In this document: piece by piece, positions 975 through 60,960 of the stretch
How the letters are laid out: every line of letters starts with the position of its first letter
Position numbering within the stretch: the first letter of the stretch is position 1
Assembly: GCA_026770705.1 (NCBI GenBank)
Contig: JANJGN010000041.1
Location: 1,736,001 to 1,800,000 of the forward strand
DNA: 64,000 bases
Origin: Isurus oxyrinchus
Taxonomy: Eukaryota
Reading direction: 5' to 3'
The notes under the pieces: generated by a model
The model's database searches: none
Told to the model about the DNA's origin: nothing
Seen by the model: the letters and a program-made list of their open reading frames with translations, nothing else
Made by a program: the position numbers and the translations under genes

Positions 975-3335
975 CCGCTCCCACGACCAAACCCCACAAC
1001 CACCAAACGCGCAGTGGAGTTAATCATGTTGTGCTTATTGCTGCTTCCGTTTTATTTCATCATATAACCTTCGGATTTCCAGATTTATATTGGCGCTCAT
1101 GAGATTTCAAGTTTCCAAATTCACAGACGTGAGTGAACATATGAACCATTGAACTGTGGGTCACAGGCATGATGGATTGCTTGCGTTTGTGAACAAAGAG
1201 TTTTGTGAATTAAAGATAGAGCAAGAGGTCATTTTGGTCCAGCAAACTGGCCTCACCAGATCAGGCTGCTTGTTGTTATTAGTTATCTTTCAAGACAGAG
1301 TGCTGAAGAACGGGACTTCTGAGCAAACACACCAAACAATGCAAATGGGATTTCTCAACATCAGCTTTGAAAACCAGCAAGCCTGAAAACAATTGTTTCT
1401 GAAAGCGAAATTCATAAAGGAAACTGGACATCAGCTTCTATTCACCCATTTCAAAGGGAAATGTACCTGACGTTTAAGGGGATAAACAAATTCCAACTTT
1501 CAAAAGAAGAACGCTAGTCGGAAACAGTTCAGGCGGCTCCTTGAAAAAAACATGTTTTTTTTGGAAGAAATAAATTGAACACTAAATTCAACATGGAGCA
1601 ACATTAAAAATCGGACACAGCTAAAAGGTTACTTCTGTCAAACCAAAATTATACCTGAAGAAAGAACAAACAGGGCAACACATGCTAATAACTGGAGTCA
1701 AGCGTTTGATTCCAATTTCAAAGATATTATCAAAAATTTTCCTTTTCAGCGCATTCGACCATGACTCAGTGCCAATGGCGCTCTAATTTGAAAACAAAAT
1801 GCAGAACAATCATCACAAAATCGGTCAAACCTTCTCTGTCAGGCTTCAAGGCCATGCTGCCACCAGTGTATTACTCAGGGGTGCAAAATAAACTGGAAGT
1901 TTTGACAGATCAAAAATGACTTGCGGTCGCCCAGGACACAGTTTGAAGAACATTACATGCTATCATCATGCCATTACAAGCCAACAAGCTATTACTAAAT
2001 GATATTCAGAGGTCTGTTAACTCCTGCCATCTTGTTATTGCATTGAGAATACTGCCTTTTCCGGTGCATTTTAAAACATAAGCATTAACCGAGCCCTCCA
2101 GTTTCTTGCCCTTCTTAATGTGAAAAACATCAAACTCCATCACTTTCAGCAGTTCAGCCTCTGCTTCAGTCTTTCCCTCCATCCCTGCCTCCACATTCTC
2201 TTGTTGTTCTGAAACGTGACCTTTCTGTTTCGAAGACTTGTGAGCTGACCTCGAGGTACACCTGCCACGTTCCCGGTCTCGATCTTATGACCTTGAGCGG
2301 CCATGTCACCTGGCTCCCCTCACTTTGCCCTACAATATTTCCCCAGGCCTCATGAAAGAGGTGAGGTATTCAGTATTGCAACTGTATGAGGATCCGAGGA
2401 AAGGATTGAGGGTAAGATCTAGAAGTAGGGTAAAAAGGCAAACATCACTTGTGAATTGGCAGAACCTACCTCCGGTGTCGTTCAATGTAACACATCAATT
2501 TCGTGTCCATGTACGTTCTAATGAATGTAAAGAGTAGATTAAGGGAATGACGTTAGATTGTTCTCTTTGATATAAGTTTCTCTTTGCCTACAAGCTTTTT
2601 ATGAGAATTGAAATTGATCATTTGGCCGCCGGTTGAGACATTGGGACCGTAGAGGAGTAGAAAAACAAAGAGCTTGAGATAACTACCCCCCTTTTATCGT
2701 TTTGGAAGTTACCTGGAAAAAAACAGAATGAATTATTGATTGGCGCATCCTTTTAAACATATGAAATCCCAGATTGAAGTTGATTGGCAGAATCCTGTAT
2801 CCCCAGATTCAGATCTCCAGCCTCCAGTAAGACGGATATTTTGGAAACGAATTTAAATTATAAGTCCCCTGATTCAGATCTCCAGCCGACAGTAACAATT
2901 ATGTTTTGGAGATGAATTTAAAACCTGTGCACAATGATTCAGATCTCCAGTCTGCAGGAACAGGGACTTGTTGGAGGAGGTTTTGAATCTTGTCTCCTCT
3001 TTTCCAGATCTCTATCCTGGGGTACGTGGGAAGTTGTGGAGTTGAAAATGAGTACTGTAGCCGCTGATCCAGATTTCGAGTCTGGAGTCAACAGCCATGG
3101 TTAGAGATGGACTTCAATCCTGTATACATGGGTCCAGGTATGCTTTCAGAGGTTCATGGGATGTTCTGGAGAAGGTTTTAAATCCTCTATGCATTGGTCC
3201 AGATCTGCAGTCTGCAGTAACTGGCATGTTGCTGAGGTGAATGAGAATCATGCACCCACTGATCCAGATCTTCAGTCTGCAGCTACTACGATGGTATGCA
3301 GTTGTAGCTGAAACCGATATCCACTGACTCACTTT
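975..3335. repeat. Copy 1 of a ~2.4 kb interspersed duplicated unit (decayed coding-like region plus 65-bp array)
   Basis: Colinear, same-orientation similarity to 27125-29510, e.g. ORFs MGHRHDGLLAFVNKE vs MGHRHDELLAFFNKD and MEAGMEGKTEAEAELLKVMEFDV vs MEAGTEGGTEAKAEILKVMEFDV. Confidence 0.9.
2790..3335. repeat. 65-bp tandem array (8 or more units)
   Basis: The core cagatctccag (or variants) starts at 2810, 2875, 2940, 3005, 3070, 3135, 3200 and 3265, an exact 65-bp period. Confidence 0.9.
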
Positions 3336-13800: not shown

Positions 13801-14880
13801 GTGCCCGCTAAGAATCCTGTTTGCACAAAACTTCCTTTTCTGAAGTTGTACTGAACGTAAATTTAAATGTTTACACAATGGAAATCCAACAGCAAGATCA
13901 AAGGACAGGGACACTGTTGCTAATAAATGAAACACTTCAAAATTAGATAAGCTAAGAGACATTTTTGAAGATTTCACGCATTAAAAGAGGTTGATAGGCT
14001 TTACATGTTGGTACATTTCTTCAACACAGAGGCTCCGCCACACTGCAGACTAAAAGCCACATATTTACAAAATCCATTTGTCTTCAATCACGGAGGAACG
14101 AACAATTCAGTCCTGCAACGTTTTCAACCAACACATTAAGCAATTTAAGAAATGAGCTGTTCCTCTTCTACACTCCTAATAATTTAAGTATGTGTTGCAT
14201 TTCTGCAAATCATCATGCTTTGTGTGAGGGTGTATGAGTGTTTGTGTTGTACATGATCGTTATTATTTGTGTTTGTGCATTTTGTAAGAAACGGACGTTT
14301 ATTCTTTCGTTTGAAATGATAATTCGCAAGAAAGCTCGCTTCGAAATTCTTAAAATACCATCTGTGGAGAAAAGAAACATTCCTTCTGATAACCGCTGAG
14401 CATTCCTGTCAGGAAGATATGTTGAGCAAAATATTAAATTAACCCATTTCTCTTCTTTCTCCTTAATGGAATCATCACCTCTGGCGCCTCTCGATCAACT
14501 GCGTCTGCCCTCTCACTTATGGATTCCACACTCACCCATGGGTACCACCCGTAATACGCACGCTGACCTGGCACTCCGTAAGCCTCAATCACCGCTAAGT
14601 GCAACTATTATCCTCCGATTACTCCTTTACTCCCTTGTCTCTTAAATATTCCCGGTCTCCTGCAACTCTCATCTCCACTCCATTTCCACCTCCTTATTTA
14701 AACTATTCAATGTATTCTTCCTTCCATGGAATAACAGAGATTTTTTATACCTTCTTTCAGGGCCGTTCATTTCAATACACCAGAGGATGCTGTAATACAT
14801 CTCCATCGCATCTCAATCATACTGGCAACTTTGGTGCCAGAGTGATATATCATTTTACTAATTATTACCTTTCCTTGCAG

Positions 14881-15758
14881 TGAACATATTCACGATTGTG
14901 ATATTGAGGCGCCAGAGGTGCGGTCTCTCCAATTGTGTTACCCGTTACCTGGTGGCCATGGCAGTGGCTGATCTACTGGTCATTATCCTCGACCTGATAC
15001 TGAGGCATATTCCAATTGTGTTTGATAAGTATTTTATTTTCCTGCAATCAGTCCCAGTGTGTAATATCCACGCCGTCCTGCTCTATGCAGCCACTGACTG
15101 TTCTGTGTGGTTCACCGTCACTTTTACCTTGGATCGATTTGTGGCCATTTGTTGCCCGAAACTGAAAACTAAATATTGCAATGAAAAAACGGCAGCTGTG
15201 ATTCTGAGAACCGTCATTGCACTGAGCTGTTCAAAGAACATTTTCTGGTATTTTTTGTTCACAGGTCAGTACTGGCTGGTAAACTTCCCCTGGTTTTGTG
15301 GTTACACAAAAGAGGTTCTGTTCTCTCCTGTCTGGGTAACAATCGAGTTCACCCATCACATTCTAACACCTTGTGTCCCATTTGTACTGATCCTGCTCAT
15401 CAATATTTTGACAGTCGAGTATATTTTAGTGACCAGCATGACCCGCAGGCGACTTCGGTCTCATAGGAGAGGGGAGAGCCCCAGAGACCCAGAGATGGAC
15501 AATCGAAAGAAATCGATCATGTTACTGTTTTATATTTCAGCCAATTTCATTGTTTTATGGGCAATGTTAATGTTTTATTCCATATGGACCCGAATGCATG
15601 ATTTTGGCTTTAATACACTGTATCTACATGTTTTTGTTCTGGAATTGGGTTTCATGCTGCAGCTCCTGAGTTGCTGCACAAACACTTGGATTTATGCTGT
15701 GACACAGACTAAGTTCAGGGAGCAGTTTTGGAAAATGTTGAAATATCCCTTCAATTAA
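14881..15758 (+). CDS. GPR139/GPR142-like class A GPCR 1, coding exon 2 (TM1-TM7 and C-tail); spliced product 350 aa
   Basis: Acceptor ttccttgcag ends at 14880. Open frame contains CGLSNCVTRYLVAMAVADL, TM3 Cys, SVWFTVTFTLDRFVAICCP, TPCVPF and LSCCTNTWIYAVTQTKFR, ending at TAA 15756-15758. Exon lengths 175+878 = 351 codons. Confidence 0.93.
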
Positions 15759-17730: not shown

Positions 17731-18299
17731 TCCTGGTCGGGGAATCTTATACATTCGTATGTGTTAAAATTAGAGAATTAGCTTACTATTGATATCCTGA
17801 ATATATATGTCAACTTATGGTGATGACTTAAAATTACTGCACAAACACGTTAATTTATGCAGTGAGTCACTCCAAAATCAGACAGCAGTTAAAGTCTGTG
17901 GTGAAGCATCCATTCCGAACATCATTCAGAGAATGAGCCAATCCGGGAGCACCACTGCTGTCTGACAGGCAGCACAGCCAATCTGGAGCTTCTCCCAGGG
18001 ACTCACACAACCACTACCCAAAAACACCATCTCCACAGCCACTCAACTAATTCACACACCCCGTTATTAAAAGCCACCTCATCCAATTGGTATGATTGAC
18101 CAGGTGAATCACGATTCACTGAGCCTATTTGGTATTTTGTTGACATTCGCGTGACAAAATCCTCGAAATCCGCCTGCTGAATGACACCTTACGTGAACCA
18201 AACAGGGAGCATCATTATGTGGCTAAAAAACGCAACAGCCAATCTGGGACTTCATTTGGTAACTCAGGGCCTTCTTCCCCAATCAGGCAGCTGCTTTTG

Positions 18300-27124: not shown

Positions 27125-29510
27125 TCCGGTCCACAACCAAACACCTCCACCACAAAACACGCTGTGGAGTTAATCATGTTGTGCTCATAGCTACTTCCGT
27201 TTTAGTTAATGATATAACCTTATGATTACCAGAATTATATTGGCCGTTATTAGATTTCAATTTTCCAAGTTTACAGACGTGAGTGAACATATCAACCCAT
27301 TGAAGTGTGGGTCATAGGCACGATGAATTGCTTGCGTTTTTTAACAAAGATGATTATTCATTAAAGCGCCGTGTGAACCCAAGAGATTTTTTTGAATTAA
27401 AGACAGAGAATAAGGTAATTGTGCTCCAGAGGACTGGCCTTACCAGTTCACGCTGCTTGTTACAACTAGATAACTTTCGAGAAAGACTGCTTGAGAACGG
27501 GACTTCTGAGCAAACTCACCGACCAATGAAGATCGGATTTCTCAAAACCAGTTTTGAATACCACCAAGCTTCAGCACAGTTGTTTCTGAAACCAGAATTC
27601 ATAAAATAAATTAGACATGAGCTTATATTTCCCGTTTTCAAAGGGAGACTTAACTGACTTTTAAGGAGATTTACAAACTTTCAAAAGAAGAACGCTAATC
27701 GGAAAACAGTTCAGGCGGCTCCTTGGAACAAAAAACAAGTTTCTTTCTAGGAAGGAATATATTGAACAATGAATTCAAAATTTGGGCAACATTAAAAATC
27801 GGACACAGGCTAACAAGTTACTTTTGTGAAAACAAAATTATATTTGAAGGAAGAACAAACAGGGCAAAACATGCTAACACCTGCAGTCAAGCATTTGATT
27901 CAAATTTGAAAGATATTATCAAAATATTTTCCTTTTGAGCGCATTCGATCATCACTCCTTGCTAATGGCGTTGCAAGTTGAAAACGAAATGCAGAACAAT
28001 CATCAGAAATTCAGTCAAACCTTCTCTGTAAGGCTTCAAGGCCATCCTGCCACCAGTGCATGACTCGTGGTGCAAACTGCACAATGCAGGTCTCTGTCTG
28101 GAAGTTAGAGCACATGAGAAATGGCTGCGGTCGCCAAGACCCATTCTGAAGATTATCAGATGCTATCATCATTCCATTACAAGCCAAGAAGCAGTTATGC
28201 AATGATATCCAGAGGTCTTCTGAATCCAGCCTTCTTGTTATTGTGCTGACAATACTGCCTTTTCCGGTGCACATTAACAACGTAAGCATTAACCGAGCCC
28301 TCCAGTTGCTTTCCCTTCGTAGTGTGAGAAACATCAAATTCCATCACTTTCAGAATTTCAGCCTTTGCTTCAGTCCCTCCCTCCGTTCCTGCCTCCACAA
28401 ACTCTTGTTGTTCTGAAACGTAATCTTTCTGTTTCGAAGTTGATATTTAAATCGGTTTGTGAGCTGACCTCGAGTTACACTTCCCACGTTCCCGGTTTGG
28501 AACTCATGAACTGGAGTGGTCATGTAACCTGGCTCCCCTCACTTTGCCCTACAAAATCTTCCCAGGTCTCATGAACGAGATGAGGTGTTCACTATTGTAA
28601 CTGTATGGCGATTCGTGGAAATGATTGAGGGTAAGATCTAGAATTAGGGTAAATAGGCACAACATCAAATGGGAATTGGAAGAACCCACCTCGGGTGTCG
28701 TTCATGTAATTTATCAATTTGGTGACCATGTATGTTCTAATGATTGTAAAGAGTAGATGAGGGGAATAAAGGTAGATTTTTTATTTCTCTTTTGTATATG
28801 TGTTTTTCTTTGCCTACGAAATCTTTATGAGAATTGAATTCGAGGCATTGGGACTGTTGGGGAGCAGAAAAGCAAAGAGCTTGAAATAACGACCGCATTT
28901 TATCCTCTTGGAAGTTAACTGGAAAAACAGGATGAATTATCTATTGGCACATCCTTTTAAATATAATAAAATCACGTATTGAAGTTGATTGGCAGAAACC
29001 TGTATCCCCTGATTCAGACCTCCAGCCTACAGTAAGATGGGAATTTTGGAGATGAATTTAATTATGTATCCGTTGATCCAGATCTTCAGCCTACAGTAAC
29101 AATTATATCTTAGAGATAAACTTAAACCCTATATACACTGATACAGATCTCCAGTCTGCAGGGACAGGGATGTGTTTGATGAGGATTTGAATCTTGTCTC
29201 CACTTTTCCAGATCTCCATCTTGGGGTTCCTGGGATGTTGTGGAGTTGAAAGTGAATAATGTAACTACTGATCCAGATTTCCAGTCTGGAGTAACCAGCC
29301 ACGGTTGCAGATGGGCATGCAGTTAGTGCTACATGGGATGTTGCGAGAAGGTTCTGAACTCTGTATTCATTTCTCCACATCATCAGTCTGCAGTCATTGC
29401 CATGTTGCTCAGCTGAATCTGAATCATGTACCCACTGATCCAGATCTTTAGTCTGCAGCTACTATGATGTTATGTAGTTGTAGAAGAATCCGATCTGCAT
29501 TGACTCACTG
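27125..29510. repeat. Copy 2 of the ~2.4 kb duplicated unit (coding-like text continues leftward to ~26890)
   Basis: Colinear with 975-3335. The 65-bp array cores fall at 29015, 29079, 29144, 29209, 29274 and 29441. Confidence 0.9.
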
Positions 29511-42555: not shown

Positions 42556-43588
42556 TATTATCACCTGGACCGGATAGGTAAATATTTGTAATTTTAACAC
42601 GTTTTCTGTTTGTTAAATATTTGCCTCGAAACGGGACTGAGCTGTCACAATTAGCTCTCCTCCCTGGCACCGTTCAACAAGGTCCGTGGAATGAGCTGAA
42701 TATAAAGCAGCAGCTCACTCACTCTCTGAGGGGCAAAGCACAAACTACCAATGCTAACTATCATATTCAATCATTTTAATTTTTCAATTACATATGGACG
42801 TTCTCTGAGCCGAATAAATATAAGCAGGTGAATATACGAACTCAAATATTTGATAATTAGAACGAGGCTATGAACGTTTTGTCATTCAGGGGACGTGAGT
42901 GTCGCTGCATCTGCCATCAGATTTTATTGTCAAGCACTGTATACCATTGAGAGTCTGTTGGTCAGCCTCCTTCCTGACCACTGCAGTCCATATTATTTAT
43001 GTACAACGGACGTGCTGTTCAGGAATGTGTATTCAAGGGCCTGGAAGATGTCCCTGGTGTTCAGCATCAGAAACTGTTTTATTCATCGTCTCCCATTCTC
43101 TGTAGCTAGGCCCAGTGAGTTATTCACAATTTTATGAGTTCACGCAGAGATTCAGCCTCCTCCACCCCTCTAGTCCCTATGTACACTTCCCTCCACCAGC
43201 ACACCGTCCTGAAATACCCCAATTTCCTTCCGCACACCGGTGCCTCATGAACTTCCGAAACTGTTCCCCATTTCCTTTCCAACCTGCACCGCTTTTCATT
43301 TCCTCTAACCAGACCCTCGACCGAAATGTTCTCTCACTGCTTCAGGTTAAATGGGCTAGTTGGACCGAATGGCCTGTTGTGACGAAATCACTACGAATGT
43401 CCCTATTACAAAGTACTCCAGTGGTGGGCATTGGCTGGAGACGAAAGTCAACTCATTTTTACAGGAGAGGGTAAAAATGTTGAAGTTGTCCAAAATGCAC
43501 TGTGTCTACAATTCTTTGCATGTTGACCAGCTGAGCTTTGGTTACCATGGATATTTGGAGCACTTTGCCAATTTGTTTAATATTTGCT

Positions 43589-43961
43589 TGTAACACGGAT
43601 CTGACCAGGTTAGGCAGTTGCCATCCTGCCTGCCTGTATTGAACAAGGTGTGACGATCTGGAATTAATGACAAACCCCAGGATGGGATCCAGCTGCTCAC
43701 TGCCAGTGTGTGTTGTCAATACACAGACCGCCCACTCTTGAGTCTCCTAATTTTGCTTTTTGCAATCGATACACACGGCGGGCTGGTGCTATGCTAACTT
43801 TGACCAATGGACGACAGGCGGCTCAGGTACCGGTCACGATCATTTATTCCAGTAATTGCGAGGACAGAAGCATCTCTAGGCATCATGCACTAACATGCAG
43901 TCAAACTGCAATCATGCAGCGTATTTTATACATTGCTGATCCCGTACAAGAAGAATATTCA
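43589..43961 (-). mobile_element. Putative 3' LTR of an env-bearing retroelement
   Basis: On the minus strand, the purine tract gacaagaaggggat (43963-43976) is followed by TG at 43961, and the segment ends ...gatccgtgttaCA at 43589. It lies downstream of the env-like frame. Confidence 0.6.
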
Positions 43962-44490
43962 AATCCCCTTCTTGTCAGAATATATGTTATGTCATACATG
44001 CTCTTTGACACCGGCAGACAACTCACCCCTATCCTGGCTGGGACCAACTTTAGTTTCCTTTTCGGTTGAAAGGATCACTTCATCTATGTTGTTGTCAGCC
44101 TCTGCCTCCAATCAGGATCCCAAAGCCTTACTGTTTTTTGCAGGCTCTAAGACTTTGCAATATTCATCTGGTAACTTTAACTGTTAATGTGCTAGATAGC
44201 ACCGGATGCATGACGTATTCAAATAATCATTCACTTTCAATACATTCTTCCTGCATGACCCCTAAGAATCACCAATACTGGGTCGTTGCCTAGCCCGGAT
44301 TCGACAAATACATTTGTACTGTCCGTCCCTTTATGTACCAACACACATTGATACTGGCCACTAATACAGCTTTGCATTAAAAATTTTGACGGTCAGGTCG
44401 GCTGTATCATCTGGTCCTACACTTGAGGTCTCAGATTTGTTAAACTTCTTCTCCCCCTTCTACATGCCTCCAGCTCCTCTTCTGTGACCC

Positions 44491-45725
44491 TCAGTCACGA
44501 TGAATCAGGTAGGTAAAATATATAATAGTTATCAGCTGAATCAGAACCAGTGCATGGGAAATAATCCAAATACACGGGTGCATTTGTACATTGGAGCCTC
44601 AATTCCACCGTTACGGTGAGGAGGAATCTACTTGCTCTATATCCTCTTTTGACACTCTAACCCGTTTACAGTAAGTTCAATACATCTGCAGAGCTTGTCT
44701 CCGAATCGGGGTTAGGTGCTCTGGCAGTTAATATATTATCATATGAGAACTGATTCAAATACCGTACCGGGTTATCGTTATGGCTTTCCATGACCTGGGT
44801 ATTAGTCCATCCTCTCTTGTATATTTAGAGCAGTTGTACATTTCCCAGGCTTGCCGGCACCTGCGGGTGTAGGGACAACAATTGATTATGGATGGATCAC
44901 ATCAAGTTACCCCAATACTGGATCATTTGCTGCCACGCAGTGATACAATATCTCCTATTCCCCATGTATGCAACATGGGTCGGTTTTTTTGCAGCCCATG
45001 CAGTTTCCATTATACAATTTGCTGCTGCTTTGAATTCACACTTTGTTTCTTCCATCTCATATATTGGATGAGCACATACAAAGGCTGTGCTTTCGAAACC
45101 GCGCCCTTCTAATATTGTGCTAACTATATTCCCTTGTATGTCAACTGCTTATGGCAGAATGTCATGTTGCCTAACATAATAGTTTCCCCACATCACCCCA
45201 ACATGTTCGGCTCAATACAATGTTCTGCTGGGTGTTGACGTAGGTATAACAGGTATCACTAAGTCAATGCCAATTAGCATGTTACAATTCACAATGCATT
45301 CAACATTCTTTCTACATACACGTGTTAAACCTCTGAGCTGGCACACAGCCAAGTCATGATTTCTATGTCGTGGATGGTTAAATAAAAGTTCATTGGTTGC
45401 CCATGAAGCAACTCCATCTTCATTAATCTCTTAAATTCAGTCGGGCTTGTTCCAGTGTACAGGGTCCATTGGTCCTGCAGACATAACTACTGTTTGCTTA
45501 ACCTGAAATATGTTTTCCTTTACTGTTAAATTTATTGATAGACCACGCATGACCTTCGAGCAAGTTAGCCATGTTATGAATTAACTGTTTCATGTCATGG
45601 CCTGTATTAAATTGGATGTCGTGAAATCCATGTCCCCGCTTAAAATTTCCTTTAGCTGGGAGATCAAGGATTGGACAATTTTGTCAACAGTTTACAGGTC
45701 AGTGTACTTAACACAGAAGCTTCCC
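44491..45725 (-). pseudogene. Endogenous viral envelope remnant, class I fusion (F-like, lokiretrovirus-type) glycoprotein
   Basis: Manual minus-strand translation across about 3 frameshifts and several stops: DL*TVDKIVQSLISQLKEILSG..KQLIHNMANLLEGHAWSINK (HR1), LVIPVIP...LY*AEHVGVMWGNYYVRQHDILP, FVCAHPIYEMEETKCEFKAAANCIME...HVAYMGNRRYCIT (Cys-rich core), IRRQALQMY*TYCKRVRVSKEDIEQV (HR2), RWN*GSNVQMHPCIWIISHALVLIQLITIIYFTYL (TM). Confidence 0.7.
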
Positions 45726-47060
45726 CACTGAAGCATTCTGAAGTTTCTATCCATTTGAGTAATAAGGCGGTATTATTCTTCCAACCAAAATGCATAAACT
45801 CACTATTCTCAATATTAAACAACATCTAGCAAATGTTGTCCCATTCACCTTACTTGTCCATATCCATTTGTAAATATCTTATATCTTCATTACAACTTAT
45901 TCCCCACCTATTTTGGAATTATCTGTAATTTTAGCTATTGTACATTCTATCCCTCAACCAAAGTCATTCATAACGATTATGAATAGTTGGGCCCTAGGAC
46001 CGAACCCATTGGAAACCCAATAATTACAGCTGGTGTTCGGGAAAAAAAGAACCATTTACCCAAACTCCTTTCTTTCTGTTGGTTAGCCAATCCTCTCTCC
46101 AAGCTAATATAATACCCATGACTCCATGCGATGTACCTTGTGAATTAATCTTTTGTGCAGCTTCTTTTCAAAGGCCTTCTGCAGTGCAGAAATACAACAT
46201 CCACAGTATCTCCATTATCCACTTTGTTTGTCACATGTTCCAAAAACTGTAGCAAATTACCCAAACACGAGTTAATTTCATAAAAAAATGCTGACTCTGT
46301 TGGACTTTATTTCGACGTTCCAAATGCCCCGTTAGTAATTCCTTAATAACTGTTTCCAACAATTTCTAAACGATAGATATTAAACTGGTTTAGAGCTTCC
46401 TAATTTCTGCCTCCCCCAATCCTTCTGAATAAGGTCATTATATTAATATTGTTCCAATCCAGTGCAACCTTTTTGGAATCCAGGGAATTTTGGAACGTAA
46501 TTACCAACGCATTCACTATTTCTGCTGCCACATCCTTTACGACCACTGGATTTAGGTCAACAGGTCCTGGGGACTTGTCACCCTTTAATCCAAAATGTTT
46601 GCTCAGTACGTTTTCTCTAGTTATGGTCATTGTTCTAGGTTCCTGCATCTCTATTCCCTCTGCTCTGCCTGTTACGATTGGTGTGGCAGTAGTTTCCTCC
46701 GCCGTGAAAATTGAGGCAATATATTGAGACTAAACATATAGTGCCTTTTCTATGTTCCCCACTGTTAACTCTCCAGTCCTACCATCCAACTGACCAACAT
46801 TCGCGTTTGCTACACTATTTATTTTTATATACTTTTGGAAGAATTTGATATCACTTTTTTAATTTTGCGCTAGTTTACTTTCATAGTTTTCCTTTGTTAT
46901 TTTTATTAACTCTTTGTTCGTCTTTATAATGTTCCAAATCTTCCTGCTTGTCACTTTCCTTTTCCACTTGGGATGCCTTAATTTTGGATTTTGTGTTGCC
47001 TTTAACTTCCTTGCTTAGCCCTGAAAGATTTTTTTCCCACTCTTACCATCATTCTTCCTC
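45725..47060 (-). mobile_element. CR1 LINE ORF2/RT fragment
   Basis: ORF 46400-46648 ITRENVLSKHFGLKGDKSPGPVDLNPVVVKDVAAEIVNALVITFQNSLDS..DW..NI..LF, with downstream FEKKLHK.L, GF.MGSVLGP.LF..YMND and ADNSKIGG motifs. Confidence 0.88.
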
Positions 47061-47870: not shown

Positions 47871-48799
47871 TGATGATTGATTCTCCCGGGACTTCACCAT
47901 GTGAGTACGTGGCAAAAAAAAAGTGGCAGTCTGTTATCACTTGTGACATTAGATCAAGTCAATATTTGCACAATCGATTGCCAAATGCTGCATACAATGC
48001 CCGTTCAGGTGGAATTAATTAACTTTGCCCTCTCTTCCTTGTCTTTAGGTCACTTGACTCAGTTCTCCACAAATGCCTAAATCATTGGATGATTCCTCTA
48101 TTTGGTTGTGCCAAAGGTTTTCTTATTTCGTTCAGAATCATGTTTTCAAATATATCCTTTCCTGTGGCGGGGATGTTGTTAGATGGACCACAAGTTATTG
48201 CCAGATCCAAATTGCCCTTGAAAAGGCGGAGGTGCCCTACATTCCAGAAATTCTATATTTCATCTGATTGACGTCAGTGGCATTCCCTCAGTACCTAGAA
48301 AAAAGTTCGTCAGGCTCAGTGTGAATTCAGATGACTGAGGAGTCCCATTCTGGATCTACATGTTCTTGATAAAGACGGGCACATTTTTTTGTGCTGGAGA
48401 TTTGAAATCAAAGGTCACTTCTCCATGCTGTGCTTTGGCCGTTCCACCACTCTTGAGCCGCTGAGACTCGAAGCGGTTTTCGATTTGATGCACTGGATGA
48501 TTCAGGCCGAGTGATCAGCAGCATTCTCCTCCCGCCCCCTGGTTTTAAGACATCCGTGCATTAGGAAAAACTGGAGATTATACAAACAACGTTCTCTTTG
48601 ACCGCCCTTTGGACGAGGACTGCTAAGTGGTAGATGCAAGTATGGAAACGCAACCCTTTCCTGAAACATGTGCCCTACAACCGCCAGATGTCTGCTGCAT
48701 TTGTACAGGATTTTGGCTGGGTGCCTGTGGCATCAGAGCCTTGCCAAGTCACCAATCCTCCATGCCTACAGGGCTTTTCACCTGAAGCATGGTTGTAAA

Positions 48800-51200
48800 C
48801 CCATATGTTAATACCAGGATTTCGGTGTGCCGTGTCTATGCTTCAAACGATGCAGGCACACCGGGATGCTTTTAGCAATGTAGTGTCAGGGTCCCATGTA
48901 TTGGGATCCAACTTGCAATCTCTGAGCTTAGTTTTCAGATTTCAGACATCCTCTAGTGGAGCTTCCTGTGCTCACCGAGTGTGGCGTGTTTCTACGTACG
49001 TATTTTCCAGATGAACAGCATGACCTAGCCAGGGAACCGGGGCTCTAACGAACATACTTTTGATATCATGCTTGCTGCACTTTGCAAGTTCATTGGTTTT
49101 GCGGATTTTCTCCTGCCAGGAACCGTTGGAAATTCTTCACAGACAGTGATGTTTGAAAGTTTTCATTAGCTTTCTATGTGGCCGAAAGGTTATGCAAGTC
49201 TCGCAATAATATAGAAGTGATATAATAAAAACTGCCTGGAAGGGCTTGATCTTCCATCCGAGGGAAGATTCCATGTTCTCTTTGCCGAAGTCAGTGAGTG
49301 AATGCTGTCAAGTGCCGAGCTTGTTTTTGTCAGTTGGTGTGTAATTTGCCCATCCAGTTAGTGGCCTTGGAGTCCATGTGGCCAAGTGAGAAAAACGTGC
49401 TTAATGAACAAAGTGGTGCATTGCTCAAAGCGGCTGTGGTATCTTGGAGCACGTGACCAGCAACGGTTTAATGCAGCATCTCTATCCTTAGTTATATTGT
49501 CAAACGAAAACATTCTGTGTTTCCCGCAACGCCCTGAGTACACAGCTGAATGTCTCTGGATACTGACGTATGAGAGCGCATTTTTCCACGAATACGACTT
49601 CCCTCTGTAGCTGCCCAGCAGCCTCTGTGCAAGGTTTTATTCTTGGCTCATTCAAAAGGCTGCCGGTGGTCCTGAAATGAATCGATAATACTTTGTCAAG
49701 TTGTTTGAGTCCATGCTTGGACAAAGACCTACAAATATATGACAAACAGAGCTGGTGATATTAAACAGCATTATTTGGCACTGCAAGTGATATGCAAAGG
49801 GTTCACACAGACCAAACAGTTTGTATCCCTCTGATCATGACGCCTTCATCATAGAGCGAATGACACTGACCATCTGTTCAGTGCTGTCGCATATTCCTAG
49901 CTGTATTGGATAGTTTATTGAACAAGAAGGGAGTCTAGGTTGTGTTTTGTGAGGGAGTTGGACGAGGGGGCGGATATACGGCGCTGGTTGGGGAAGAACA
50001 GGCAGGAGAGCGGGTCTGAGGACACAATCAGAAAAACCATGATCTTTCCGAATTACAGGACAGGCTCAAGGGGCTAAATGACCTACTGAACTTTACTATT
50101 CTGTTTTTGGTGTTTGGTTGAAATGCAGCCCACACCAAAGGTGGAGGAGCCATCGATTTTGGTTCATTGTAATCAGTGTATCTATCTTCTAATGATTGTC
50201 TTCAGACTAGATTTGAGGGCCAAGACTAAAATGTTCAGCGCGGAATGCCGTCCCAGCGATGCACTCTACATATCCGATTGTTTTATTCAAGTAATTGTTT
50301 TTCATTCAGTTGAATCATCACTCTGGTTGGACTATGTGAGTGGGTGAGCAGGAGGATTGGATGACTCGGTGAATTGTTACTGGGGCTGTATAGGGTCGGA
50401 ATGCCTTGAAAGCATTATGTTGAAATATTTTGTTTGAGAAAACAAAGGCCTTCTTCATACAGTATTTATTGAACATCAAGTCACCACCAACACCAACCTT
50501 CCAGGTTGAACGTTTGCGGTTATAATTTCCAGGCAGAATGGTGCAAAGTTATGTGCAATGGAAAAGAATTTCGGTCAAGTCACTGACGGAAGTGTCAGTG
50601 CTAGAGGAATCCATGGAAAGATCTGGGAAGCGCATGAGTTCCCTCTGGAAGTTTAAATGTCACAGACAAACATCACACATGTGCCCTGCTGGGAGATAAA
50701 ATTTGTCCCGAAAAACATGACAGTGGTGAACATTTGAAATTTCCCGCACTACCTCTCCTGACAGTTGAGGCCGATTGAGTTTCCTCGAATCATTTTGAGC
50801 TACATTAGTAAAGATTAGATTTCCAATATCCCTCCGTGGGTAAAGCATTTCCCACCGTGATTATCCACTATGGGATCTACCAGCTGCTCGTTAAAATATA
50901 GCCCCTTCAATTGTATTGACCACAAACATCATTCGAATGTTCGATGTTTCATTTCGAAACGGTTCCTTTTTGAAACAGAGCGACTGACGTAACCTGTTTG
51001 TTCAGTGACTAAAACTAATTGATTTCTTTAGGGGACATGAATGCTCTAATGGGGATTGATCTGCTGCTTATATAACAGTTTCGCTGAATGTCAAATTTCA
51101 TGTTTTGCAACAGGCTCGGTGTATCGGTTTCAACGTGAGTTAGCTCCTCTTACAGTGAATATAATTTGTTGTACTTCATAAGATACGATCCATTTTCAAA
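48800..51200 (-). mobile_element. Decayed RTE-clade LINE, interrupted by a CR1 tail near 49930-50100
   Basis: Minus strand reads QAVFIISLLYYCETCITFRPHRKLMKTFKHHCL*RISNGSWQEKIRKTNEL...PWLGHAVHL, matching the RTE/BovB C-terminal LLY.CETW..Y.RH...FH.RCLR.I..I.WQD...W.GHV.RM. Confidence 0.7.
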
Positions 51201-58900: not shown

Positions 58901-60058
58901 ATATTTAAAATCACTTCGCACGGATGCTGTGCTTGAGATGCCCTTTCGGCAATAAAGTGAATGGTTTTGCAGCCGATCAATTAATGGGAACTCTGTCCTG
59001 TCTACTAGGAAGTAAAACGCTAGTTATGACCTCAGTACAATCACATCATCGAATTGGTCATTAACTTTGCCTTGCAAGAAATGTGCCCCTATGGCCAATA
59101 AACATTGCCCACTCAATCTGATAGCAATGTCACCGTTCCCACTCCGCCATTAAATTGCCCTATTGATCAGGACTGACTCCACTCATTCTGCATAGCAATG
59201 TTGCTTCACACCTTCTGCAATGAATTAGCGATGCATTCACCTGAAATAATCCTGCACAATGCCCAGCCAGCATATCAATCTTACATTACTCATTCTGACT
59301 TAAAACACATGACTGATCAGCTCTCATTCATGAATAAAACTTCTCGCTGTGAACCTGCATAGGAATGTCACTTTGTACTGATTGTCATTGTACCGCCACC
59401 GTGATAACTGCAGTGTAAACTTGCATTCAGCCTTGTCTATGCTGTCTTTTATGTAGCTCAGTGACCATTTTCTGGTCGTATGTTTTTGCCATTCTATCTT
59501 TCATCCTCTCAGGCATTCAGAGTATGTTCATGCCACTGGACAATATTTTACCTTCAAGCTGGATGTCCTGTAGCACAGTAATGCTTCCCAGTATTTATCA
59601 CATCTGTAGACCACCCATATGCATTGCACCAATACCTCTTCCAGAGTATAAGTCAACTTGGCACAGATACTATTTTGCGCGTTAATTTCCCATTTCACAT
59701 TGTACCAACACACATGAATTGCCACTTTACATTTACCTTCTATTATTCACGATGCCCAGCCATTTGTTTGCTTTCAAATTTTCCAGGTCACATTCGCCCT
59801 CAGTAATCTCAATCATTACTAAACAATAGTTGCCTAGTTTACTTTGAATATGGTCATTTCAAATTACGAATTATCAACTGAGGTTTTCCTTCCCTATCCA
59901 CTTTGATTCGGTCCAGTTTAAATTTAGAACATGCTCGCCTCGGAATGCAGACTGTGCATATTTGGGTTGAAAGCACAATCCTTTGCTGCAACAGGAACAA
60001 AATTAGTAATGTTCATTTGTGTCGTCTATCTCTTGCTCTCTTTATCCCTCTCTTACAG

Positions 60059-60960
60059 TTAATCTTGTTGCGATTGTGATTCTTTCCCGAGGAAACTGTG
60101 GCCTTTCCAAATGTATTAGCTACTATATGATCGCCATGGCCGTGGCAGATCTCCTGGTTGTTTGTGCTGAAGTCATACTGAAAAATACGCTGGATATTTA
60201 TTTCCCTGTTTTATTCTTGACCACGAGCACGGTGTGCCCTCTAACTGTGATTCTGACTTACGCAGTCATATCAGCCTCTGTCTGGTTAACAGTGGTGTTC
60301 ACCTTCGATCGTTTTGTGGTCATATGTTGTAAGAAGCTGCGAAAAAATTATTGCACAGGGACAACAGCGGTAGCTGTCACATCAGTGGTGAGTGTGTTGA
60401 GTTGTTTGATAAACATTCCCTGGTACTTTGCGTTTGAAACTGCATATATAATGGACAATGTAAATCGTGGTTGTGTCCTAACACAGAATTTTTTCATTTC
60501 TGCTGAATGGGCCGCATTTGACTTGTTTACCATTATCATGACGCCATGTATTCCATTTATCCTAATTTTGTTGCTAAATGTTTTGACGGCTAGACGTATT
60601 TTGCTGGCCAGTAAAGTTCGCAGATGTCTCCGCGTTTGCAACAAGGATTCTGAAATAGAAAGCCGAAGAACGTCCATTATTTTACTCTTCAGTATAACCG
60701 GGAGCTTTATATTGCTCTGGACAACTCCGGTTATATATATTATCTCTTTGCATGTAACAGTCACATCGAATTCTGGCGCACATGCACTTCAGTCACTTGG
60801 ATCCATGCTTGGGATCCTCAGTTGCTGCACAAATACATTCATTTATGTGCTGACACAGGCTAAGTTTAGGAAGGAGCTGAAGAACGGAATGCAGTATCTT
60901 GTGAAATTGGGCATAAAATTAGGCAAATTACAGTGGAGTACCCGTGCACCATTTCAGTAG
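60059..60960 (+). CDS. GPR139/GPR142-like class A GPCR 2, coding exon 2; spliced product 323 aa
   Basis: Acceptor ccctctcttacag ends at 60058. Frame reads VNLVAIVILSRGNCGLSKCISYYMIAMAVADL, SVWLTVVFTFDRFVVICC, TPCIPF, LSCCTNTFIYVLTQAKFR, ending at TAG 60958-60960. Exon lengths 70+902 = 324 codons. AATAAA at 61147. Confidence 0.93.

Follow-up and report, generated by a model that had tools for sequence, protein, structure and literature searches.

A decayed 3' fragment of a probably SnRV-like retrovirus family in Isurus oxyrinchus, with a predicted F-type envelope and a candidate captured env paralogue

The 64,000 nucleotides of Isurus oxyrinchus analyzed here (the window; contig C41, positions 1736001–1800000) carry a decayed minus-strand reading frame that resembles a viral fusion protein and is followed by a long terminal repeat (LTR). 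The locus raises the question of which kind of retrovirus left this fragment. A first-pass annotation had proposed a lokiretrovirus-like element with an F-type envelope. We find it very probable that the window holds the dead 3' fragment of a multi-copy LTR–gag–pol–env–LTR family, likely related to snakehead retrovirus (SnRV-like, clade Huo), whose Env is predicted to adopt the F fold.

The env remnant and its LTR

The env remnant lies at 44467–45712 of the window on the minus strand and corresponds to codons ~301–722 of the family Env, from the end of the fusion peptide to the cytoplasmic tail. The reference for it was P0001, a natural open Env paralogue of 724 aa that is the translation of a dispersed genomic copy. 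Three-frame translation recovered the minus-strand frame with the motifs first quoted for it. The protein alignment spans aa 297–720 in two HSPs (51% and 61% identity, E 4e-106), and the DNA is 77% identical over codons 308–722. The remnant is non-coding, with eight stops in the 403 aligned codons, three frameshifting indels and a branch dN/dS of 0.60 (three-point estimate). Its 5' limit, at ~45712, falls within the fusion peptide and abuts a decayed LINE ORF2 fragment (45713–46990, minus strand, seen in translated frames), which we take to be CR1-like from its motifs. Both gag and pol are missing at this junction, together with the 5' 40% of env. The signal peptide and the N-terminal domain are absent from the remnant, as are the F2-like segment and the furin site. 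No gag or pol was found upstream of the remnant in the window, and Pfam searches of window positions 43000–43800, 45730–47000 and 47900–49400 gave no match. The window copy is an inert fossil that does nothing as a protein gene.

The P0001 model, mapped by alignment, places the elements of a fusion protein along the remnant, all on the minus strand. The HR1 or long helical region (aa ~305–398) lies at approximately 45424–45700, the Cys-rich β region (aa 425–600, predicted F1 DI/DII-like domains) at 44818–45343, HR2 (aa ~630–665) at approximately 44631–44727 and the transmembrane helix (aa ~685–712) at 44496–44577. The proposed order of HR1, Cys-rich domain, HR2, Trp-rich segment and transmembrane helix holds in the model of P0001; in the window copy the Trp-rich segment has partly decayed. 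From the start of HR1 to the transmembrane helix P0001 has ~380 aa, in line with the >350 aa first estimated.

The limits of the LTR were set by aligning it with a duplicate and with the 3' LTRs of six sister copies. The 3' LTR spans 481 bp (43787–44267, minus strand), starts with a decayed TG at 44267 and ends at 43787, its termini having decayed from TG...CA. It contains a TATA box at ~43924–43930 and AATAAA at 43843–43848, both on the minus strand. A decayed polypurine tract (44268–44280, minus strand) aligns with the purine tract of the sister copies. The span of 43589–43961 given for the LTR in the first-pass annotation was misplaced: the purine tract and TG that it took for the boundary (43960–43973) belong to U3 and directly precede the TATA box. 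Positions 43589–43786 are host flank rather than LTR: they lie past the LTR end of the six sister copies and are also carried by the duplicate L047, whose LTR is shorter.

Searching the genome at the DNA level yielded 949 first-look candidates, of which 40 were scored, and at least 42 matches. Fourteen lie on contig C41 with flanks that align too, and dispersed copies are 75–78% identical. Of the C41 env copies, ten are 93–100% identical and four, in opposite orientation, 79%, flanks included. The C41 copies are segmental duplicates of a GPCR cluster, and the fragment was copied later together with that cluster. Rhodopsin-family GPCR genes with a single exon, along with relics of such genes (7tm_1), lie in tandem in the window at 14862–15755 and 60010–60957 (plus strand), with further GPCR fragments near 17800 and 39450. 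Two diverged duplicate blocks, ~980–3330 and ~27130–29510, lie ~26.2 kb apart, each with a terminal 65-bp tandem array.

The envelope protein and its predicted fold

The N-terminal part of P0001 consists of a hydrophobic N-terminus, a Cys/Trp-containing domain of ~150 aa and a Pro/Thr hinge. The middle is made up of a segment that terminates in RDKR (281–284), a mildly hydrophobic fusion peptide and long helices. The Cys-rich β region, HR2, a Trp-rich stretch and a transmembrane helix follow, and the tail is short and basic. Among 1.84 billion representative sequences searched, 42 Env relatives were found; of the 20 looked up, 13 are from shark or skate and 3 from frog. The P0001 model, built with an alignment of 33 of the 42, is of moderate quality (pLDDT 61.6, pTM 0.45, aa 10–196 not resolved) and shows helices at 281–398, strands at 432–595 and helices at 631–665 and 685–723.

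By sequence, Env had no match in Pfam (no PF00523), in PDB sequence and profile searches or in a search of 5.8 billion sequences, and Pfam searches of 43 relatives gave weak matches to Baculo_F (E 0.001) and GP41 (E 0.04) only. The predicted model was compared with known structures by Foldseek, a check that the first-pass annotation had suggested, and the best PDB matches are F proteins: RSV F (3rki, E 3.4e-11) and hPIV3 F (1ztm, E 2.2e-10). There were 240 PDB matches at E<=0.001, F proteins filled 40 of the 40 rows listed, and TM-scores were 0.2–0.33 of the query. The best 12 VIA-align rows are all F proteins or foamy virus Env (Z 11.5–7.9, rmsd 5–41 Å), among them NDV F (Z 11.5, rmsd 16 Å) and foamy Env 8rm0/8rm1 (Z 8.4/8.1, with rmsd 6 Å at Z 8.4). 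The BFVD matches listed include walleye epsilonretrovirus Env (E 1.6e-9 and 2.9e-8), with models from the walleye dermal sarcoma and epidermal hyperplasia viruses, and feline foamy virus Env. Also listed there are fish filovirus GP, lispivirus F, baculovirus F, and ORFs of abalone and ranid herpesviruses. The top Atlas match was a Fusion_gly/Baculo_F cluster (0.93, 211 of 256 features), with a recognition of 1468 where the mark for reliability is 2300.

An F-type class I fusogen, as opposed to a gamma-type Env, was the central proposal for this frame, and the model of the unbroken paralogue bears it out. The fold searches match F proteins and the F1-like ectodomain measures ~400 aa. P0001 lacks both CX6–7CC and CXXC, and the open env has neither ISD nor CX6CC, as had been noted for the window copy. 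The predicted assignment of Env to the paramyxo/pneumovirus F fold is well supported. The N-terminal domain had no usable Atlas match and its own model reached a pLDDT of 34; an Ig-like fold is merely hinted at in relatives, by a V-set match (E 0.045) in P0036 and a UniRef name for P0013.

Other members of this Env family that are open over their full length, with variable N-terminal domains, are P0013, P0017, P0046 and P0036 (bamboo shark, parsley frog, Mantella and a further run). The open Mantella Env belongs to a cluster of 16 members, which suggests a young expansion. Pieces of env are also spliced into annotated shark gene models (P0015, P0027 and P0038: an fbxo15 isoform, a Niban-like and a cadherin-related 5-like gene), through either exonisation or annotation artefact.

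Established class I fusion biology suggests how the ancestral virus may have entered cells. A spliced env mRNA would give a type I membrane protein with a signal peptide, in which the variable ~150-aa N-terminal domain on its Pro/Thr hinge would likely bind a receptor. Furin could cleave behind the F2-like segment at RDKR (281–284) and release an F1-like subunit, whose HR1 and HR2 would refold into a six-helix bundle and drive membrane fusion.

Complete proviruses and placement among retroviruses

The window fragment had been attributed to an enveloped LTR element, and complete copies of such an element, with env linked to pol, exist. Of 13 RT-anchored 10-kb loci, 9 have env after pol, and a genome search for full-length copies recovered paired LTRs around gag-pol-env in five loci (L111, L115, L116, L122 and L038). 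The layout is typical of Retroviridae (LTR-PBS-gag-pro-pol-env-PPT-LTR, TG..CA termini, target-site duplication). Family LTRs run from TG to CA over about 460–590 bp; five of nine complete LTR pairs have a 4-bp duplication and four have no clean one. The primer site matches tRNA genes called Ser in three of the four loci scanned. Pfam domains in L038 are zf-CCHC (E 0.012), RVT_1, RT_RNaseH_2 (E 0.048) and Integrase_H2C2. Both the tether and the RNase H region can be aligned with guide sequences that contain RT_RNaseH_2 and RNase_H, a feature common to all retroviruses. Pol is broken in every copy examined. LTR K2P distances range from 0.03 to 0.23 across 14 pairs; dating from them is unreliable, giving ~7–53 My on a mammalian rate and tenfold more on the rate of PMC4422223.

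Many other copies are LTR-env-LTR elements of 4–6.5 kb without pol, which likely spread in trans. A large sub-family has one common deletion in the N-terminal Env domain (env nt ~210–490/520).

The RT sequences make it likely that the family belongs to the SnRV-like clade Huo (PMC6001957). The motif LPQ is present in seven of seven natural frames, and PFG in 24 of 24 published lokiretrovirus rows (PMC7947760, supplement). The family and the SnRV row have the stretches NSxIWPVxKPDGS, NGFW, GCK..QYVDD and LGLFNxCR in common. Over ~258 columns, counted by eye without a program, the SnRV row shares ~40% identity with the RT of L111, WDSV 34% and Loki-Str 31%. Against PDB sequences, the RT scored 168–171 bits with MLV/XMRV, 102–105 with foamy virus and 88 with Ty3.

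An RT phylogeny, as the first-pass annotation had advised, put the family within the retroviruses; named SnRV (clade Huo), lokiretrovirus and foamy virus rows are absent from the tree, and the clade Huo call is made from motifs and from identities counted by hand with published rows. Of 132 tree candidates, 22 covered too little of the RT and were left out; 38 of the remaining 110, all with enough RT, make up the tree described here, and a quick tree was made of all 110. The family forms one clade (support 100/99), sister to one further pol, with a minnow pol and another pol as next neighbors (100/97). It falls inside the retroviral clade (100/98), outside Gypsy, and outside the class I group (100/99), a label assigned from Gag_p30 domains and motifs. 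The 38-row tree does not settle how the ERV-L-like, element and class I groups join at the backbone. A scan of IMG/VR for reference retroviruses found none.

The low RT identity to SnRV, only ~40%, and the open backbone of the tree would also fit a separate basal lineage near clade Huo but not inside it, or a recombinant that joined an SnRV-like pol to an env from another aquatic virus. SnRV Env is absent both from the Env relatives that were looked up (20 of 42) and from the 50 BFVD rows listed, as either version would allow. SnRV-type motifs nevertheless run along the whole RT, and env and pol occur together in those 9 of 13 loci and have synonymous branches of similar length, so we regard both versions as improbable. 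The reading as a chondrichthyan foamy-like ERV (clade Tu) has still less in its favor. The Env match to 8rm0/8rm1, the NGFW motif and the 4-bp duplication would fit, and foamy-like ERVs of sharks are cited in PMC11468914. The RT, however, is far closer in score to MLV than to foamy virus, and the family combines a 724-aa Env that has an N-terminal signal peptide of cleavable type with a Gag CCHC zinc knuckle and a Ser primer site. Foamy viruses have a long Env leader peptide, a Gag without CCHC and a Lys primer. A foamy-like origin is accordingly very unlikely.

The lokiretrovirus identity first proposed, which would have been the first in cartilaginous fish, is largely refuted and the least credible of these readings: the F-like Env with its RXKR site, the dual RNase H, YVDD and a GP..G motif that likens the start of the F-like body to a lokiretrovirus Env row speak for it, and the Wang and Han screen covered just a handful of chondrichthyan genomes, but the RT has LPQ rather than PFG, a longer spacer before YVDD and LGLFNYCR in place of an LG[VIM]xNYSR-type motif, is far nearer to MLV than to Ty3 or foamy virus, and goes with an Env whose extra N-terminal domain and hinge (~180 aa) are missing from one lokiretrovirus Env row. 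Nor does the F-like Env point to lokiretroviruses, as had been assumed; the fold is not diagnostic of them because the model also matches foamy and walleye-virus Env. Placement in the SnRV-like clade Huo remains our preferred reading, and SnRV-like ERVs have already been described in elephant shark as CmiERV lineage I (PMC4422223).

The open env paralogue and comparison with known systems

One provirus of the family, L038, contains an open env of 724 codons (L038:1552–3723, minus strand; G000:C40:8928251–8930422). It is the only full-length stop-free env among 62 scored candidates, drawn from 6367 first-look candidates by protein, and all 54 locus rows compared with it, some copies being counted twice, have stops and frameshifts. 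The provirus around it is old and ruined. Its LTR K2P distance is 0.167, its primer site is partly deleted and its 3' LTR stops short of the poly(A) signal AATAAA. The 671 codons of its pol include nine stops, and 13 private frameshifting indels are spread over 3533 pol bases; env has no stop, and its 2132 bases are free of private indels. At the pol rate, the Poisson chance of a frameshift-free env is 4e-4, stops not counted. Histone genes (H2B, H3 and H1) lie within about 10 kb downstream of the open env (L124).

The L038 env branch has dS 0.22 and dN 0.034, a three-point ratio of 0.15, where 24 decayed copies have 0.30–0.84. Across ten proviruses, the L038 ratios are 0.50 for pol (dN 0.104, dS 0.21) and 0.17 for env (dN 0.030, dS 0.18). 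The dN of its env is thus less than one third of that of its own pol, and in the other nine proviruses env dN roughly matches or exceeds that of pol. Low dN/dS alone can come from the viral phase, because the env of L115, a distant sub-lineage, also has a ratio of 0.17 and yet carries 10 stops.

A second organism, B, has the same insertion, as a contig spanning the 3' LTR–flank junction in two runs indicates; cover of the orthologue consists of short, fragmentary contigs. In the long contigs listed, flank, pol and LTR have 169 differences in 4820 positions and env 15 in 857 (p 0.006), a comparison in which a 95% cut-off and the choice of low-depth contigs lower the env figure. Six of the eight env differences listed are synonymous. 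A 1-bp loss and a 1-bp gain, five bases apart near the env C-terminus, appear at a 90% cut-off only.

These patterns suggest that the L038 env is probably maintained by the host, under purifying selection within a ruined provirus. The fuller scenario is slightly less secure but still favored: the shark would have captured an F-type retroviral env as a host gene, selected since before the split from a related species while the provirus decayed, and syncytin-like or receptor-blocking in function. Fusion (syncytin-like) and receptor blocking are its two likely candidate roles.

It is also possible, if rather unlikely, that this env stayed open by chance or was restored by late gene conversion from a younger virus. 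The number of candidates gave chance many trials, the low three-point ratio may reflect the viral phase (other pol branches have 0.09–0.21), and the 3' LTR is cut before AATAAA. No run on record as RNA contains the L038 env; the presumed-RNA runs X1 and X3 contain only env pieces of 31–121 bp that may come from paralogues and that speak neither for nor against expression. Against this reading, env dN is far below that of its own pol at similar dS, the reverse of the other nine proviruses, and chance retention of the frame has the low Poisson value given above. The nearest paralogue is 88–89% identical, and therefore the assembly holds no young donor; in organism B, env differs less than flank and pol, mostly at synonymous sites. 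Maintenance by the host remains the better supported explanation.

What is new here is the open and apparently selected env paralogue in L038; shark SnRV-like ERVs as such were already known. Our mostly open-access literature search found no description of an F-type SnRV-like or captured shark env, and surveys or supplements may already list the family or the open env. An F-type Env in a canonical SnRV-like shark retrovirus, with relatives in frogs, adds to the foamy, walleye-virus and lokiretrovirus cases. It favors the F fold as an old and widespread retroviral Env type rather than a lokiretrovirus peculiarity, and bears on four scenarios of Env origin left open in PMC7947760. The L038 env is a concrete candidate for a captured non-gamma env, which gamma-type screens for ISD and CX6CC would reject. 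If the capture is real, the gene would be syncytin-like or receptor-blocking and would belong to a class of fusogens invisible to such screens.

Among known systems, SnRV and the clade Huo ERVs, including CmiERV-I (PMC4422223, PMC6001957), are alike in RT motifs, host group and LTR-gag-pol-env layout. They differ in the ~40% RT identity by eye and in the Ser primer site of the shark family, and the portions of PMC4422223 and PMC6001957 available to us do not describe an F-type Env. Lokiretroviruses (PMC7947760, PMC9040795) have a similar F-like Env with an RXKR site, and tether plus RNase H. Unlike the shark family, they have an RT with PFG and a short spacer, and an Env of ~570 aa with a furin site near residue 115 (in one row), compared with 724 aa and a site at 281 behind the extra domain. 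Lokiretroviruses are reported to be missing from the chondrichthyans screened, and Wang and Han give Chondrichthyes orders with 0 lokiretrovirus-positive genomes.

Foamy Env (8rm0/8rm1, PMC11468914) and walleye epsilonretrovirus Env likewise join an F-like fusion core to an extra part for receptor binding, but are larger (981–1317 aa in the rows compared) and belong to other RT clades. The paramyxovirus and pneumovirus F proteins (RSV, hPIV3, NDV) resemble the predicted fold of aa 203–670 and the F2/F1 cleavage layout at 8–14% identity; the shark protein differs in its retroviral context and in having a built-in N-terminal domain instead of a separate attachment protein. Syncytins, percomORF and the chondrichthyan syncytin-like Envs (bioRxiv 10.64898/2026.05.06.723177) resemble L038 in combining an open env with a disrupted pol and in being common to related species. 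Those captured envs are gamma-type, and the chondrichthyan screen, as described in the accessible part of that preprint, required ISD and CX6–7CC, whereas the L038 env is F-type by prediction and has neither ISD nor CX6CC.
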